A stretch of 64,000 nt of DNA, from contig JBHLLF010000016.1 of assembly GCA_048885865.1 (NCBI GenBank), forward strand, positions 1-64,000. Direction: 5' to 3'. Below are positions 43,041 through 50,748 of the stretch, piece by piece. The position numbers were made by a program, and so were the translations under genes. Below the pieces are notes generated by a model, which made no database searches, was not told the origin of the DNA, and saw only the letters and a list, made by a program, of their open reading frames with translations. How positions within the stretch are numbered: position 1 is the first letter of the stretch; every line of letters begins with the position of its first letter. This DNA comes from Candidatus Hermodarchaeota archaeon. GTDB taxonomy: Archaea > Asgardarchaeota > Thorarchaeia > Thorarchaeales > Thorarchaeaceae.

Positions 43041-46000
43041 TCATCCGGATATTGCATACCTCACGAAATCCTCAGCCAGTACTCGATCAAGTGTTTTGAT
43101 GAAGAACTCGGCGTTATCCCTGGTGAACACTAGAGGGGGTTTGATTTTGAGGACATTGTTGAAAGGACCATCCGTGCTAATAAGTACACCAAGATCTTTC
43201 ATCCGATTGGCGACGTAACTGGCTTGTTCAGTTGCAGGAGTTAGAATCTCATGATTAAGGACCAATTCTACGCCTATGAATAGACCAAGCCCTCTCACAT
43301 CGCCTATGATTCTGTGTTTCTTCTTCAGTTTGTAGAGCTCATCAATCATGTAGTATCCGACTTCGTAAGCGTTCTTTTGCAGGCCTTCCTCTTCGATGAC
43401 ATCAAGCACAGCCATTCCCACTGCACATGAAACCGTGTTTCCACCTGTAGTGCTAAAGAACTCCATCCCTGTATTGAAGGAATCCGCAATCTCCAGTGTT
43501 GTTATGACAGCACCTATGGGATGGCCATTTCCGATGGGTTTGCCAAGGGTCACAATGTCAGGAACAACACCCTGCGTTTCGAAGCCCCAGAAGTGACTTC
43601 CAACCCGACCGAATCCCACCTGCACCTCATCCACGATACATACTCCTCCAGCATCGCGAACATAGCCAAACGCATTTCGGAGATAATTATCAGGAAATAT
43701 GATTTGACCCGCGCAACCCATCAGCGGCTCACAAATGAACGCGGCCACTCCTTTTCCCTCATCCAGATCGAGAATCTTTTTGAGAACGTCCATTGCATAC
43801 TTCTCACCGGCTTCTGGATTGTCAGACTTGAAGAGACCCCTGTAAACGTCTGGAGTGCTCACTTTGTGCACTTGTGGCGAAGCACCCTCACCTCCGGGTC
43901 CATCAAACTTGTAGGGACTGATGCCCACAAGTGTGCCTGTGTTTCCATGATAGGCTCCATCAATTACAATTAATTCGGTCTGCTTGGTGTGAGCGAATGC
44001 GAGTCTTAGGGCAAGCTCATTGGCTTCACTACCGCTATTGACGAAGAAACATACACTTAATGAGCCAGGCAATTTTTCACAGAGGCGTTCTGCATATTTC
44101 GCCAAGTTCTCATGGAGATATGTGGTATTTGTGTTTAAGACCCTTGCCTGACGTGTAAGTGCGGCTACAACTTTCGGATTAGAATGGCCTACATGTGGAA
44201 CGTTATTTCTAGCATCCAAGTACTGCTTTCCATTCGCATCATACAGATATTGCATCTCACCGCGGACAATGTGAAGCGGCTCATCGTAGGCGGTTCTAAG
44301 TGACTTGCCTGTGTATCTTTGGCGAGTTTCCAAGACGGCTCTGGAATCCATTGGAGCTGATAGCCGATCTTCTGGTAGTTGTAGTATAATGTTCGGATCA
44401 GGACAAATGCTCAGCCACACATCTTTCATGCTCGGAGGGGCAACACCGAAGAAATCCCCTTTTCTATCGAACATGTCTACTATGAGTTGAAAATGCAGAT
44501 GAGGTGGCCATCCCCCGTTCTCCGGATACGGTCCCACATTCGCAATCACTTGCCCCTTCTTTATTTCGTCACCTTCAGCAAGGCCAACAAGAGACCCCGT
44601 GGTAAGATGGGCATAAAGCGTGTAGAACTTATCATCAGTAAAACCGACGCTATGCTCAAGAACGATTGTGGGTCCGTTATCTAGAGGCAAATCGTTATTC
44701 TTTAGACTATGTATCTTACCGTCCAGAGGAGCTAGAATCTGTGTTCCAGGCTCCATTATCAGATCAGTAGCAATATGAATGGTCCTTAACTCACCAGCAG
44801 GCTCTAGATATTGCTCACCAGCATAGATTAGTCTGGCCTCATTGTATCTCGCTATGCCGTATTTGGCCTCTCCATCACCTATTCCTTGTGTCATGATGGC
44901 TGAGAGCTTATTGACGTCAGTCAAGTCTGATATCTTCTCAATATCAGGACTGCCAACGCTGAGGTCCACCACAGTGAATGGGGCTTTTCGGATATCAAAC
45001 TCAATCAACGGCCCGATATCTCTTGCATTCTCTCTCAGCCACTCTACAACCCTCTCACTCGTGGGACATGGAGCAAGTCCACACGCATGACGGAACACAT
45101 ATGCTGCGAATCTATGATGAACTTCCATTAGACGCTTTAAGAGGTCCCAGACTTCCTTCTGGCTTACGAGGAGATACTTATTGTCAGGTTCAAGTTGTGA
45201 CTGATAACCGGCAATTGCGATGCTTGTGGCGAGTCGCGCCAAAATTAGAGGGAAGAGAAGTTCTATCTCAATCTCGGTTAGGGGATACTTGGAGTGATAT
45301 CCTCCTACAACATGGGATGCAGCTCCAATTGGATCAGCCTTCCCTAGGATAGCATATGCGATTGCTACAGCAAGCTCATTGACAGTATGTGTCAGCACCA
45401 TGTCACCAAAGTCTAGAATGCCAAACCGAGCCTCTTCAAGTGGATAGGGGTTTGAAACCAGAACATTATGGTCATTTGCATCATTGTGCACAACGCTAGT
45501 TCTTAGGTCAGGCATTCGTGGAACTACATGCTTGTCATAGATTGACATAACATATTCTATGGCTTCAGCCTTCTCTGATTCCTTGACATATTCCTTGTAC
45601 TTCTCTATAACAGAACTAGCCAGTTTTAGGTCCCAATAGAACATACGCTTCGTTGCAGGATGAGAGAAGCCCTCTAAACCGCAAGTCATTGCTCCGACGA
45701 ATTCTCCGAATTTAGTGAGAAGGCCAGGAGAATGTGGCTTTAGCTCAGCAAACATTGTTCCCGGTAGGTATCGAAGAAGTCTGACAAAGTGCTTGTTTTT
45801 CTTTGAGTCTTTTACAGTAAGAATCTCTTCGCCGTCCTTCGACAAGACAAAACGAGGCACATTGAAAGGAACAAGCTTATCTGACAGGTGCTGCATGGCT
45901 CGATTCTGCATATCCAAGATTTCTTCCTTCTCGGATGTGGCTGCGATTTTTAGGACATACTCGTCGCCAAGATCTGTTCGAATATAGAAGTTCAGATCAC

Positions 46001-46109
46001 GTTCACTTGGAAGCTCCCTTATGGTTCCCTTCACTCCAAATTTACTCTCAGTAATCTTCAGCGCCTCCTCGTCTGTAAACCGAGGACGATTCGCATCCCG
46101 CTCGAGCAT
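43041..46109 (-). CDS. Trifunctional APH-type kinase + M23 peptidase-like + class III aminotransferase-fold phospho-lyase (HYKK/PHYKPL-like)
   Basis: HNDANDHN and DFGD; HIATD, YAHL and PHLHFQ; [17 protein letters not shown] and LGKP. Confidence 0.9.
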
Positions 46110-46628: not shown

Positions 46629-47126
46629 ATGAAAGAGGAGTGCCTTGACGAGGTCATGATAACAGTATTTCCGCCAATTCCAGGGATTGGTGTAGTTGAA
46701 GAGGACCCTATAGTGGAGGAGGATGCATGCGGAGATTCAACTCCTCCAGTGCCTACTCCTGGCGAAACCATAGATGGAGGTGCAGTGGTCATCTCATTGG
46801 CTCCGAAGGACCCAACTGACAAAATCACAGAAATGCTGCAGAAGGTCAAAGAGAAGTTCGGAGAAAGCGTCTGTCTTAGATATGCCAAGTATGATACAAC
46901 GGAGGACTCCGAAGAAGCACGGAGCTGGCTGAATGCAGCGCTGAGAGGTAGTGGTGACAACACAGTACTGGACCATCAGAAGTTCACGATGTTCATTGGC
47001 TCGACTGCACCGATCATCTCCATAAACAATAGGCTTTCATTCGTAGGAACGACACCAACTCTTCCTCAGCTTATTTCAAGAGTTTCTGCTGCCATAAGAA
47101 TGGCGGAAGAAAAGAGGGTAGAATAG
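46629..47126 (+). CDS. Hypothetical protein, thioredoxin/ArsD-like fold suspected
   Basis: C-terminal APIISINNRLSFVGTTPT resembles the cis-Pro beta-hairpin of thioredoxin-like folds. Confidence 0.55.
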   Translation: MKEECLDEVMITVFPPIPGIGVVEEDPIVEEDACGDSTPPVPTPGETIDGGAVVISLAPKDPTDKITEMLQKVKEKFGESVCLRYAKYDTTEDSEEARSWLNAALRGSGDNTVLDHQKFTMFIGSTAPIISINNRLSFVGTTPTLPQLISRVSAAIRMAEEKRVE

Positions 47127-47135
47127 GTCTCACCC

Positions 47136-47156
47136 CGGAATGCAAGCTGCATTCCG
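47136..47156. terminator. Perfect hairpin between convergent genes
   Basis: CGGAATGCA-AGC-TGCATTCCG. Confidence 0.6.
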
Positions 47157-47181
47157 AGGGAAACCTGAGAGGAGTGAAGAA

Positions 47182-48552
47182 TCAAGCTGCTTGTTCTTCT
47201 GAAGCTTTAGTTTCCGCTATTGACGGAATGCCATTAGGTGCGAGTGCGCCATCCATCAAGGCAGCATATGCCCCCATGTCGAAGTATCCGTGGCCAGAAA
47301 GGTTGAACATAATGACCTTGTCTTCGCCAGTTTTCTTGGCTTCACGAGCAGCATCTATCACAGCCTTTACAGCATGTGCAGACTCTGGTGCTGGGATGAC
47401 TCCCTCTGCCTTCGCAAAGACGATTGCAGATTCCAGAACGGGAATCTGATCATAAGCGATTGCACGAATGCGTCCCTCGATGAGAAGTGCACTAATAGAG
47501 GGCGCCACTCCATGATACCTCAGCCCACCAGCATGAATGGGGGGTGGGGTGAAGTCTTTTCCCAAGCTGTGCATCTTGACCATGGGGGTCATTCCTGCTG
47601 TGTCGCCAAAGTCATACTTGTATTCGCCCTTTGTCATGGAAGGACAGGCAGTTGGCTCAACGCCTATGAACTCTGTCGACTCAAAACGACCATCAGCAAT
47701 GAAAGGATAAGCTATGCCAGCAAAGTTGCTGCCGCCTCCCACACAACCAATGATAGCATCGGGTATCTGATCATCTTTCTCAAGTTGAATGATCGCTTCT
47801 TGTCCAATGACTGATTGATGAAGAAGGACATGGTTTAGAACGGACCCGATCGTGTACTTCGTGTCATCATTGGTCACAGCATCTTCAAGCGCCTCACTAA
47901 TCGCAATGCCTAGTGTTCCAGGATGGTCAGGTTTCTCCGACTTGATTTTCCTGCCAAATTCGGTTTTGTCAGATGGGCTTGGAACTATCTCAGCACCATA
48001 GGACCGCATAAGGGTACCACGATACCCCTTCTGTTCTAAGCTTACTCTCACCATGTAGACCATTGCCTTAAGCCCGAAGTGAGCGCATGAAAGAGATACC
48101 GCACTTCCCCATTGCCCGGCACCGGTTTCAGTAGCATATCTGGCAACACCCTCGTTTCGGGCATAGTATGCTTGTGCTAACGCAGTGTTGAGCTTGTGGC
48201 TACCTGTGGGCGATACATCCTCACGCTTGTAATAGATACGCGCGGGGGTGTTCAGGGCGGCCTCAAGACCAACTGCTCTTTGAAGCGGAGTGGGACGACC
48301 ATACATCATGTAGGCCTCCCGGACTTCATCAGGTATCGGCACTGTTCTTTCCATCGTCACTTCCTGCTTAACACACTCAACAGCAAAGATAGCCATCAAT
48401 GCTTCAGGACCGATTGGTTCTCCTGTGCCTGGATTCAGAGGAGGGGCCAGTGGCTCTTTGAGGTGAGGCAGAATGTTGACGTAATGGGTTGGTACTTCTT
48501 CTAAATCCAACAGGATTCTACTTACTTTTCTAGTCAATTCTGATCTCTCCAT
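47182..48552 (-). CDS. trpB2: Tryptophan synthase beta chain 2 (TrpB2)
   Basis: SPTGSHKLN, ETGAGQWG, GGGSN, IHAGGLRYHG and NLSGHG motifs; no trpA adjacent. Confidence 0.95.
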   Translation of the reverse strand: MERSELTRKVSRILLDLEEVPTHYVNILPHLKEPLAPPLNPGTGEPIGPEALMAIFAVECVKQEVTMERTVPIPDEVREAYMMYGRPTPLQRAVGLEAALNTPARIYYKREDVSPTGSHKLNTALAQAYYARNEGVARYATETGAGQWGSAVSLSCAHFGLKAMVYMVRVSLEQKGYRGTLMRSYGAEIVPSPSDKTEFGRKIKSEKPDHPGTLGIAISEALEDAVTNDDTKYTIGSVLNHVLLHQSVIGQEAIIQLEKDDQIPDAIIGCVGGGSNFAGIAYPFIADGRFESTEFIGVEPTACPSMTKGEYKYDFGDTAGMTPMVKMHSLGKDFTPPPIHAGGLRYHGVAPSISALLIEGRIRAIAYDQIPVLESAIVFAKAEGVIPAPESAHAVKAVIDAAREAKKTGEDKVIMFNLSGHGYFDMGAYAALMDGALAPNGIPSIAETKASEEQAA

Positions 48553-48565
48553 AGTAGGTTATATC

Positions 48566-48765
48566 AAAAGACCCTCTCCTCTGACATGAAGGAGGAAGCA
48601 GCTGACACAGTCTGAAAGACTGCGAGTCAACGATTCCAGGAAAACAAGTCGGTACTGATGTTGAGTGTGCGATATATGGAATACTTGCTAAATGGGCCTC
48701 TCTCGGCCCGTGTTCCATTGGTAATAACGCACGCTCATTGTTTCACAACCTTGGAAAGGGTTATC
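48566..48765 (-). promoter_or_regulatory. Structured trpB2 5' leader (candidate attenuator)
   Basis: Several nested stems, alternative pairing of 48753-48761 with 48571-48579, hairpin plus UUUU at 48566-48599; TATA TTTAAATA at 48784-48791. Confidence 0.6.
48688..48738 (-). CDS. Candidate leader peptide MSVRYYQWNTGRERPI
   Basis: ATG at 48738 to TAG at 48688; Tyr-Tyr-Gln-Trp codons; GGTTGTGA SD-like site upstream; lies in the trpB2 leader. Confidence 0.5.
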   Translation of the reverse strand: MSVRYYQWNTGRERPI

Positions 48766-48770
48766 CACTG

Positions 48771-48829
48771 CGTACAACTTCCCTATTTAAACCTGCCCAT
48801 CTCTGTACATCAGTCCCCATATCTGTACA
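48771..48829 (-). promoter_or_regulatory. trpB2 promoter with TRP-box-like TGTACA array
   Basis: TGTACA-gata-TGGGGA-ctga-TGTACA-gaga-TGGGCA-gg-TTTAAATA-gggaagt-TGTACG. Confidence 0.7.
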
Positions 48830-48830
48830 T

Positions 48831-49334
48831 TCATTTCTTCTGGAGATTTCTAAGCATTAGAGTATCAAGGTAGGTGTCCATAGCGAACATAGTAAGTGTC
48901 CGATCAACTGCGGGCATCTCGCGAAGTGAATCGACAATGAAGCTATTCATCTCTTGCACATCCCTGGCTCTCACCTTTAGAAGTACATCGAACTCGCCAC
49001 TAAGAACATGAACCTCCTGAACGAATGGATGTTGGGCAATTTCCTCACAAAACTCACGCTGAGAAATGACCTTTCTACTTCCTGGAACTCTATAGCGGAT
49101 AGTGATGAGTATGAGAGCCAATGTTGGACGACCTAGTTTCGCAGGATTCAGGACTGCTGTGAACAGATCAATGATCCCTCTTTTCCTTAGATTCCCAATG
49201 CGCGCATGAACTGTAGAGATTCCCTTTCCAACTTGCTTGGAAATGTCTGAGACACTCATCCGACCATCCTGTTGAAGAAGCTCGAGGATTTTCACATCGG
49301 TCTCATCAATCTTTTCCGTAATTTCTTCGGACAT
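48831..49334 (-). CDS. Lrp/AsnC family regulator (paralog 2)
   Basis: IDETDVKIL, STVHARI and VLSGEFDVLLKV; close paralog of 31320-31826. Start MSEEIT inferred. Confidence 0.95.
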   Translation of the reverse strand: MSEEITEKIDETDVKILELLQQDGRMSVSDISKQVGKGISTVHARIGNLRKRGIIDLFTAVLNPAKLGRPTLALILITIRYRVPGSRKVISQREFCEEIAQHPFVQEVHVLSGEFDVLLKVRARDVQEMNSFIVDSLREMPAVDRTLTMFAMDTYLDTLMLRNLQKK

Positions 49335-49361
49335 GCGTATCAATTCCGCAATTTCTTCGGA
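49314..49361. promoter_or_regulatory. 18-bp direct repeat TTCCG(T/C)AATTTCTTCGGA with 30-bp period; candidate Lrp operator
   Basis: Copies at 49314-49331 and 49344-49361, each CCG-N9-CGG. Confidence 0.6.
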
Positions 49362-49446
49362 TAGCCGGAATTCTATAGAAGATAGTAGAAATACTTTCTG
49401 TTTTTCGCCGGAAATCCTTATACTAACCTTTGATTCTAAAGCTAAA

Positions 49447-50748
49447 ATGCGAGAAACACCCGACCGACCAGAATTCCTGAGGCTGTTGTTCAGTACAGTC
49501 TTGGGAGCAACAAAGAGCATCGAAATTGCATTCGAGGACTACGATGACGTCATGAAGAATGGCGTTTATTTTGACGGCTCCTCAGTCCCTGGATACGCGT
49601 CGGTCAATAGCTCTGATCTCCTATTGAAACCCCGCTCATCTCGTCCTGTCCTCCTTCCTTGGGAAAAAGATGTCGCGGTCTTGGTTTGCGGGGTCTTCGA
49701 AGCATCCGGAGACCCCCACCCAAGAGATCCTTCTGGCGTGCTGGCTAGAATTACTGGTTCCGCTAGAGAAGCAGGATTTGAGTTGAGAGTGGGTTCAGAA
49801 CTTGAGTTCTTCCTAGTCAAGGAAAATGGGCGTGGCATAATAGTGCCTGGGGATGGAGGCGGCTATTTCTCAACCCTTCCCACAGACGGAGGTTTGCAGT
49901 TTAGAAGGCAAGTTGCGAAATCACTGGGTTCTATTGGCGTATCTACGACAACCCATCACCATGAAGTGGCTGCAGGGCAGCATGAAGTAGGACTCAGGTT
50001 CTGCAGCGCCATTGATGCGGCGGATGATATAATGCTAGCCAGGCTTCTGATTGCAGAGATGGCTCATGAGATTGGAGCAATTGCAACATTCATGCCAAAG
50101 CCATTCAGCGGGATGAATGGAAGTGGCATGCATCTTCATCAGAGCCTATGGAGCGTTGATGAAGGATCAAACCTTTTCTCGAGTGGGAAACCAGGACAAG
50201 TATCTGAATTAGCAGGAAGCTATGTAGCTGGACTCCTAGAACACGCTGATGCACTCGCCGCGATAGTTGCCCCCTCGGTGAACTCATTCAAGAGGCTAAC
50301 TCCCGGTTATGAAGCTCCAACAAGGATTGCATGGGGCCCCAGAAACAGGTCTACAATGATCAGGGTACCACAATACAATGGATCTGATGTGAAGGCTAGA
50401 ATCGAATTTAGATGCCCAGATCCATTATGTAGTTCCCACTTAGCTTTTGCAGCAACTTTTGCGGCCGGGCTGGATGGAATAAAGAGGGGATTGACTCCTC
50501 CAGAACCAACAGGCGAGAACCTGTACAAGACTGCTACAGAAACCAAGTCCCTCCCAGGCAGTCTTGGCGATGCACTCGAGATGCTTCAATGTGATGAGGT
50601 CATTGTAGATGCATTGGGGAGAAGCCTGGTTGATACGATTGTCAAAATGAGAGCTGCAGAATGGGCAGAATATGTTGAGGTGACAGGAGACCCAGGGGTA
50701 TCTGAAGTCACGCCCTGGGAGATATCGAGGTACCTTCGTTTCAATTAG
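49447..50748 (+). CDS. glnA: Glutamine synthetase type I
   Basis: FDGSS, ELEFF, HHEVA.GQHE, FMPKP..NGSGMH, GYEAP, NRS..IRVP and RIEFR motifs. Start at 49447 inferred. Confidence 0.9.
   Translation: MRETPDRPEFLRLLFSTVLGATKSIEIAFEDYDDVMKNGVYFDGSSVPGYASVNSSDLLLKPRSSRPVLLPWEKDVAVLVCGVFEASGDPHPRDPSGVLARITGSAREAGFELRVGSELEFFLVKENGRGIIVPGDGGGYFSTLPTDGGLQFRRQVAKSLGSIGVSTTTHHHEVAAGQHEVGLRFCSAIDAADDIMLARLLIAEMAHEIGAIATFMPKPFSGMNGSGMHLHQSLWSVDEGSNLFSSGKPGQVSELAGSYVAGLLEHADALAAIVAPSVNSFKRLTPGYEAPTRIAWGPRNRSTMIRVPQYNGSDVKARIEFRCPDPLCSSHLAFAATFAAGLDGIKRGLTPPEPTGENLYKTATETKSLPGSLGDALEMLQCDEVIVDALGRSLVDTIVKMRAAEWAEYVEVTGDPGVSEVTPWEISRYLRFN

Follow-up and report, generated by a model that had tools for sequence, protein, structure and literature searches.

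Ribosome-read leader peptides are a textbook form of regulation in bacteria. In the bacterial leader-peptide attenuators (E. coli trpL, RF00513, and the his, leu, phe and thr leaders), a frame led by a Shine-Dalgarno (SD) site carries the regulatory codon, RNA helices accompany it, and a supply gene lies downstream, with the ribosome itself acting as the sensor. A literature search found no leader-peptide sensor in archaea. Here we describe a leader with the same parts upstream of trpB2, the gene for a stand-alone TrpB-like enzyme, in a 64,000-nucleotide (nt) stretch of Asgard archaeal DNA (contig JBHLLF010000016.1; the whole stretch is called the window below). Judged by comparison of related genomes, it looks like a ribosome-read tryptophan (Trp) gauge, a type so far established only in bacteria. 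The ribosome is proposed to be the sensor, as in the bacterial attenuators, but the leader differs from them in belonging to an archaeon, in having one invariant Trp codon, in lacking both a conserved terminator/antiterminator pair and an Rfam match, and in its output, which appears to be entry into a second, coupled frame rather than intrinsic termination.

Archaeal systems offer further points of comparison. In Haloferax volcanii, gene pairs are coupled translationally by termination-reinitiation (PMC6728339, PMC10666635). The trpB2 leader shares with these pairs a stop/start distance in the range for reinitiation (a 4-nt overlap as ATGA, an 8-nt overlap, or a few nt), but its upstream partner is a non-conserved frame instead of a protein gene, and coupling would serve regulation, not stoichiometry. 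At the level of transcription, TrpY is said to repress trpEGCFBAD and trpB2 of Methanothermobacter thermautotrophicus through TRP boxes, reportedly the work of Xie and Reeve in 2005. The TRP boxes are the operator of TrpY in Methanothermobacter, and TrpY binds them (PMC6737238). The locus studied here resembles that system in having TGTACA boxes at helical spacing over a trp promoter and, elsewhere in the genome, a gene for a TrpY-like protein with helix-turn-helix (HTH) and ACT domains. Unlike the leader, such control acts on DNA, upstream, and would form an additional layer.

Conservation and fold of the trpB2 leader

The original prediction, made from the window alone, had described an upstream open reading frame (uORF; here uORF1) with a Trp codon set among nested stems, and had left its case to the conservation of these three elements among relatives. 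All three are kept across at least 13 genera, always before trpB2. When the core motif CCAATGG-N5-GGGYC-N6-GRCCC was searched, it occurred exactly once per genome in 46 of the 86 genomes of the window's family and never in the 314 other Asgard genomes; the reversed pattern, used as a control, gave 0 matches. Wherever enough sequence is available, the trpB2 start follows the motif at 180-215 nt. A family-wide search for trpB2 itself returned 58 genomes, and the upstream DNA was examined wherever the exact motif was missing: the exact motif is present in 44 and a variant leader in 11, a contig end cuts the leader in 2, and a single trpB2, a 51%-identity paralogue, has none. The leader therefore precedes trpB2 in 55 of the 56 assessable trpB2-bearing genomes of one Thorarchaeota family, and it accompanies trpB2 even where the gene upstream is a different one (L007-L010). 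In one genome (G348:C6), two trpB2 paralogues separated by 10.8 kb each have a variant leader of their own (L207 and L208).

The trpB2 genes of other Asgard families lack this leader. In two of these families, Trp-rich frames precede trpB2 (FWAWRWLLWP/SSFWAWRWLTWP and GWPWRGPWQ, each followed by a stop codon). They lie 55-63 nt before trpB2 in L022 and L024 and about 106 nt before it in L023. In L022, a short frame beginning MPWNG overlaps the ATG of the longer Trp-rich frame (UGGAAUGGG), which recalls the overlap in Thorarchaeota described below.

On the minus strand, the 226-nt leader folds with -75.2 kcal/mol (z -4.35), and 0 of 200 shuffled sequences folded as well. Single-sequence folds from different genera share an architecture of four helices, P1 to P4 (Table 1), with the 3' arm of P1 20-35 nt before the trpB2 start. 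In the folds of several genera, P2 pairs the 5' half of uORF1 with the segment that follows the uORF1 stop, and in the window's leader the AUG of a second frame, ORF2, has an unpaired probability of 0.02, being paired in apical P2. Most of the pairings first proposed for the leader hold up: the nested stems form 9 of 10 pairs (48737-28/48671-62) and 8 of 9 pairs (48718-10/48684-76), the hairpin at 48631-48601 is present, and the two ends of the leader, now the arms of P1, pair 9/9. The final hairpin with UUUU at 48566-48599 is weak and not conserved. The suggestion that the stems belong to the plus strand fares no better. That strand folds less well (z -3.0), and the U-G pairs of P1 would read C-A on it, which identifies the minus strand as functional. 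An antisense gene was likewise rejected, given the normal stop density of the reverse frames and the weaker plus-strand fold.

Support for the structure came from clade-wise RNAalifold, from pair counts, and from duplex tests in which each 5' arm window was paired with its own 3' window or with those of other lineages. Cognate arms paired better than non-cognate arms both for P1 (-20.1 versus -14.7 kcal/mol) and for P2 (-20.8 versus -17.6 kcal/mol), with 0 of 20000 permutations as good in either case. Among 12 members of the window's genus, 95.7% of the cells of the consensus structure are paired, versus 34-51% with slid partners, and both partners have changed in 6 pairs, a number that none of 500 shuffles attained. 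The P1 arms are unlike between genera yet complementary, for example CCACCUUCAAGG/CCUUGAAGGUGG and GUUUCUGGGUGU/ACACCCAGAAAC, and in alignment A2, from a second clade, the P1 pair types are CG:9, UA:5 and UG:2. P3 occurs in the compensatory variants GGGUCC/GGACCC, GGCUCC/GGAGCC (L206), GCGUCC/GGACGC (L211) and GGUCCUUC/GAAGGACC (L209-212). In P4, both partners have changed in 4 of 9 pairs within the genus, and the hairpin is unalignable between genera. Helices P1 to P4 are, in these alignments, backed by compensatory changes.

The same duplex test bears on classical transcription attenuation, in which the position of the ribosome on uORF1 would choose between a terminator hairpin with a U run and the pairing of the leader's 5' and 3' ends. 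The window offers some material for it: GCUUCCUCC could form a helix with the P1 3' arm, and a UUUU run comes next. Archaeal transcription and translation are coupled, and a translated RNA may be protected from factor-dependent termination. However, the helix alternative to P1, a local terminator-like hairpin, gave no cognate signal in 18 lineages (-12.0 versus -12.4 kcal/mol; 14461 of 20000 permutations as good), a U run of at least four follows P1 only in a minority of leaders, and ORF2 would have no role. Thus, of the proposed ribosome-sensed switch, the Trp-codon leader conserved before trpB2 stands, whereas its terminator/antiterminator form is unsupported, and we consider classical attenuation very improbable. 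A scan of positions 47000-50500 against all Rfam families (cmscan, E up to 10) gave no match to the leader, including Trp_leader (RF00513) and the T-box. T-box traits are limited to the leader's single conserved UGG.

uORF1, ORF2 and their junction with trpB2

uORF1 is present as first described, and its start is kept in frame through indels: homologous nucleotides, GAGCGUGC, are read in different frames by clade, and flanking indels restore the frame. Of the 44 motif-bearing leaders, 42 have an ATG in frame with the Trp codon and 7-11 codons ahead of it, and among 19 lineage representatives 17 ATGs fall in the uORF1 frame versus 3 and 3 in the other two. Sixteen of these representatives have AGG, GAGG, GGAG or GGUG 6-16 nt upstream of the start. 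The picture is the same in leaders ascertained through trpB2 instead of the motif, all 12 of which have an SD of the GAGG/AGGA type 8-14 nt upstream, with ATG as the start in 8 and GTG in 4; in L206, SD and start read AGGAGGAG-N5-GUG. uORF1 contains a Trp codon in 56 of 56 leaders, and 2-3 Trp codons in several lineages.

The remainder of the peptide behaves differently. Where P3 co-varies, the residues after the Trp change with it (APRGAV, RPHGRV, VLLSGRTV), and the stop, found 9 codons after the Trp in 37 of the 44 motif-bearing leaders, moves by 2 to 18 codons elsewhere, in at least 8 lineages. It is therefore the helix that is conserved, and not the uORF1 peptide. These data weigh on the idea of an arrest peptide like E. 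coli TnaC, which depends on one Trp and a C-terminal Pro. In such a scheme, the nascent uORF1 peptide would sense free tryptophan in the ribosomal tunnel, stall at the stop and block ORF2 and trpB2 when tryptophan is high. uORF1 does share with tnaC a single critical Trp, a Pro near the C terminus (Trp, 7 residues, P-(V/I/T)-stop in 37 of the 44 leaders) and, as proposed, a parked ribosome controlling a downstream gene, and the logic is that expected for a Trp-supply gene. Yet neither the peptide after the Trp nor the stop is conserved where P3 co-varies, and trpB2 supplies tryptophan where the tnaC system degrades it. An arrest peptide is therefore quite improbable in our view.

Absent from the original prediction is the second frame, ORF2, which begins at the ATG inside CCAATGG and runs in frame -1 relative to uORF1 (C|CAA|TGG versus CCA|ATG|G). 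It is stop-free over 41-103 codons in 55 of 55 leaders that can be read through; these include all 12 leaders ascertained through trpB2, where it is open for 44-75 codons. Across the other 43 leaders, the ORF2 frame contains 4 stop codons, the two remaining sense frames 133 and 124, and the frames of the reverse strand 149, 108 and 105. By lineage, ORF2 is open in 16 of 19 representatives, with a dinucleotide-shuffle P of about 0.03-0.25 for each. Its product is another matter. Substitutions are spread evenly over the codon positions (35/41/39, with no third-position bias), the peptide is unalignable between genera past its first ~15 residues, which overlie conserved RNA, and no Pfam or NCBIfam family matches it. 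These data suggest that ORF2 is kept open, with no sign of selection on what it encodes, and ORF2 was rejected as a protein on the even substitutions and the lack of a family match.

They also speak against a small-protein gene (ORF2 as a real 62-amino-acid protein) or a stand-alone small RNA that merely sits beside trpB2. The length of ORF2 would suffice for a small protein, and an independent RNA could be seen in the leader's own TATA box, its closed fold and the U run after P1 in the window. Against this, the frame always reaches the trpB2 start and the element never occurs away from trpB2, leaving either form of independent gene extremely improbable.

The core CCAAUGG, in which the start of ORF2 and the Trp codon of uORF1 overlap, is invariant in 54 of 56 leaders. 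The exceptions, L207 and L208, are the paralogous leaders of one genome; there the core reads CCACTGG and CCACTGT, without the AUG. Two codons further on, in the same frame, each retains a UUG that overlaps the second or only Trp codon (UAUUGGGG, CAUUGGGG), and ORF2 is still open, for 60 and 75 codons. A start codon thus overlaps a Trp codon by two bases (NUGG) in 56 of 56 leaders, which points to the overlap itself as the conserved unit.

Overlapping frames with a nearby hairpin are familiar from other systems. Sites of -1 frameshifting have a hairpin 5-9 nt downstream, and uORF2 of ATF4 is an overlapping upstream frame. To our knowledge, frameshifting on Trp starvation is known only in human cells. 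It has been described there in PMC13751296 and PMC8942854. The trpB2 leader is like these systems in its overlapping frames, in the hairpin 5 nt after the decisive codon, which gives the spacer and hairpin geometry of a -1 site, and in the placement of ORF2 in the -1 frame. It differs in that ORF2 has its own start codon and in that no slippery heptamer (X XXY YYZ) is found, the sequence being C CAA UGG (CAU UGG in L208). Initiation or reinitiation at ORF2 is thus favoured over tRNA slippage.

At its far end, ORF2 stops close to trpB2: the distance to the trpB2 start is between -10 and +8 nt in 31 of 43 leaders, with a 4-nt overlap (ATGA or TTGA) in 10 leaders and an 8-nt overlap (TTGACTAG) in another 10; ATGA overlaps also occur in L210, L211 and L215-217. 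In Haloferax, termination-reinitiation functions at such overlaps and is almost abolished at about 20 nt (PMC10666635). ORF2 and trpB2 have the geometry of a termination-reinitiation pair, and by this analogy may be coupled.

Table 1. Positions of the leader elements, promoter elements and trpB2 in the window
Feature	Position	Strand	Remarks
P1 5' arm	48753..48761	-	ACCCUUUCC; extreme 5' end of the leader; pairs with 48571-48579
SD-like site of uORF1	48743..48752	-	AAGGUUGUGA; 9 nt before the uORF1 start; spacing as GGAG-N9 before trpB2
uORF1	48688..48738	-	16 codons, MSVRYYQWNTGRERPI then stop; Trp codon 48717-48715
P2	48659..48740	-	lower helix 48740-48724/48675-48659 over the uORF1 start; apical helix 48718-48714/48680-48676 over the ORF2 AUG and Trp codon
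Core CCAAUGG	48715..48721	-	Trp codon UGG of uORF1 shares two bases with the ORF2 AUG
ORF2	48530..48718	-	62 codons, no SD; stop TAG 48532-30; 8-nt overlap with the trpB2 start (TTGACTAG)
P3 hairpin	48694..48709	-	G+C-rich, GGGCC-GAGAGA-GGCCC; 5 nt after the Trp codon, between it and the uORF1 stop
P4	48583..48650	-	long variable hairpin; 48637-26/48606-595, closed by 48650-48/48585-83
P1 3' arm	48571..48579	-	GGAGAGGGU; UUUU after it at 48569-66
trpB2 ribosome-binding site	48535..48550	-	SD GGAGAG 48550-45 and start TTG 48537-35
trpB2	47182..48537	-	stand-alone TrpB-like pyridoxal-phosphate enzyme; NF009057 660 bits (cut-off 366); PALP domain
TATA box	48784..48791	-	TTTAAATA; all genera have an aligned A/T box that precedes the P1 5' arm by 21-24 nt
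TGNNNA boxes (4, 10-nt period)	48794..48829	-	TGTACA 48829-24, TGGGGA 48819-14, TGTACA 48809-04, TGGGCA 48799-94

A proposed gauge of tryptophan supply

uORF1, its Trp codon and the stems are conserved, and the leader begins at the position expected from the TATA box. The locus can thus fairly be interpreted as a Trp leader read by ribosomes. We propose that the leader is a ribosome-mediated Trp sensor that gates entry into ORF2, a frame coupled translationally to trpB2, on top of a promoter with TGTACA boxes, and we put the probability of this reading at about 0.55. The stretch 48761-48538 would be the 5' leader of the trpB2 mRNA and would act in cis, through ribosomes. Its RNA would fold into a closed four-helix structure in which P1 joins the ends and P2 hides both the uORF1 start and the ORF2 AUG. 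A ribosome would load on the SD-led uORF1 during transcription, and an event at the uORF1 UGG would then decide whether ribosomes enter ORF2 (at AUG here, at UUG in two relatives). Translation of ORF2 would unwind P2, P4 and P1 and deliver ribosomes to trpB2 by termination-reinitiation.

The event at the UGG could work in either of two directions. In the one we favour, a ribosome short of charged tRNA-Trp would stall on the UGG and hold P2 and P3 open; after rescue or a frame shift, translation would resume at the overlapping start codon, and TrpB2 would be made. With plentiful tryptophan, uORF1 would be read to its stop 27 nt downstream, the leader would refold and ORF2 would be shut. We favour this direction because the uORF1 stop, 27 nt from the ORF2 start, lies outside the range of reinitiation, and because a gene for Trp supply should rise as tryptophan falls.

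Several considerations weigh against the proposed sensor. We infer from sequence the transcription start, the translation of either frame and the response to tryptophan, as well as the direction of the switch and the step from stall to reinitiation. Only one Trp codon is invariant. It shares bases with the ORF2 start and is paired in P2, so decoding cannot be taken as the sole reason for its conservation. In L049 the helices persist while uORF1 and ORF2 have decayed. ORF2 has no SD. A ribosome stalled on the UGG would also cover the ORF2 start, so the favoured direction needs rescue and reinitiation, or a frameshift, and we know of no archaeal precedent for either at a stall site. The opposite logic, in which the stall shuts trpB2 off, would suit the anatomy equally well. 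As a test of direction, Trp codons are fewer in the ORF2 frame (11 TGG, versus 36 and 62 in the other frames), but control codons vary similarly between frames, so this depletion is only suggestive. Finally, predicted ensembles pair the trpB2 SD only in part, its unpaired probability scattering from 0.05 to 0.75. trpB2 could therefore also be translated independently, and these values neither support nor oppose a hiding of this SD by the folded leader.

Some of the same observations would be expected of a leader that is read by a ligand and not by a ribosome. The P1-P4 fold might bind tryptophan, indole or a relative, a protein or a tRNA, with P1 and P2 stabilised and the ORF2 start hidden; ORF2 and its coupling would then be the expression platform, and uORF1 and its Trp codon would be incidental to constraints on the RNA. 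Such a riboswitch-like leader would account for the one conserved fold, whose closing helix begins at the transcript 5' end, for invariant nucleotides in junctions and helix ends (CCAAUGG, the base of P3), for the failure to find a conserved alternative helix, and for the persistence of the L049 helices while the frames decay. It leaves unexplained why an SD-led uORF1 start is kept in frame through indels and AUG-to-GUG changes, why a start codon and a Trp codon overlap, and why Trp-rich frames stand before trpB2 in other Asgard archaea, and Rfam families show no match. Taken together, these points make a riboswitch-like or factor-binding leader unlikely.

Returning to the ribosome-mediated sensor, a narrower version of it holds that the reading frame itself is switched. 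A ribosome starved on the single uORF1 UGG would become the translator of ORF2, either through rescue and on-the-spot reinitiation, with P3 helping at the mRNA entry site, or through a -1 shift, and would then hand over to trpB2. This version is tentative and rather doubtful. If true, it would represent an amino-acid sensor based solely on which reading frame is chosen, and one found in the archaea most closely related to eukaryotes. More broadly, the leader is a concrete and strongly conserved Asgard candidate with defined parts that can be mutated individually. It opens to test the sensing of amino acids through translation in archaea, the access of ribosomes to internal starts that lack an SD, and the use of termination-reinitiation in regulation.

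Promoter, trpB2 start and neighbouring genes

The Lrp/AsnC gene upstream of trpB2 ends at 48831 on the minus strand and is followed by a 278-nt gap before trpB2; the gap holds TGNNNA boxes, the TATA box, uORF1 and the stems of the original prediction. The predicted TATA box is in place on the minus strand, and transcription would start about 25 nt after it, at about 48760-48764. The array of TGNNNA boxes ends 2 nt before the TATA box, and 2-4 such boxes are kept upstream of the TATA box across all genera, even with a different upstream gene. In the 3.58-Mb assembly, the arrangement TGTACA-N14-16-TGTACA occurs once, before trpB2. The boxes are likely the operator of a TrpY-like repressor. A candidate for the repressor is an HTH+ACT protein of ~170 amino acids encoded on another contig (G000:C32:20768-21277, locus L204), and thus not adjacent to trpB2 in the window's genus. 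This putative TrpY-like protein shares 40% identity with a regulator whose gene is transcribed divergently from trpB2 in another Asgard genus (L020:895-1416). Stand-alone trpB2 would thereby be tightly controlled at two levels, by promoter boxes and by the leader.

Loci elsewhere vary in these elements. In L208, no TGTACA boxes are evident by eye upstream of the TATA-like sequence. In another Asgard family (L020 and L021), trpB2 has a short leader, with TGCACA/TGTACA boxes beside TTTAAAT and a divergent HTH+ACT regulator, an arrangement like that of Methanothermobacter and without a structured leader.

The start of trpB2 had been placed at the annotated ATG at 48552. This ATG is ACG in L003 and absent in L010, whereas TTG 48537 is matched by ATG in L010 and in other genera, and GGAG lies 8-10 nt upstream of the start thus defined in all compared loci. 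Based upon these comparisons, the annotated ATG belongs to the SD site GGAGAG, and TTG 48537 is the true start. SD-like 4-mers precede 17 of the 52 long ORFs of the window, versus a 13% background, a weak sign of SD use in this genome. An internal promoter at TTGATATAAC (48567-58) was rejected: it is kept only within the genus, and a start ~25 nt downstream of it would lie inside the coding sequence.

Among the tryptophan-pathway genes searched for, trpB2 was the sole one found in this 87%-complete genome. Neither trpA (TIGR00262) nor a chorismate-binding gene of the TrpE type (PF00425) was found in the assembly, and the two profiles both match in 14 of 14 control genomes. Without these genes, trpB2 is probably a salvage route from indole. 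ARAGORN found no tRNA or tmRNA in the window.

Other observations concern genes nearby. The Lrp/AsnC ORF (48831-49520, minus strand, 229 amino acids) overlaps a divergent glutamine synthetase ORF (49333-50748, plus strand) by ~190 nt. Its HTH begins near residue 65, and the Met at position 63 of the protein probably marks its real start, at about 49334. lrp and glnA would then stand back to back with hardly any spacer, and the glnA start may likewise be called too far upstream. Further along the minus strand, at 43041-46109, lies a gene for a 1022-amino-acid protein with an unusual combination of three domains, an APH-type phosphotransferase, a peptidase M23 and a class-III aminotransferase.

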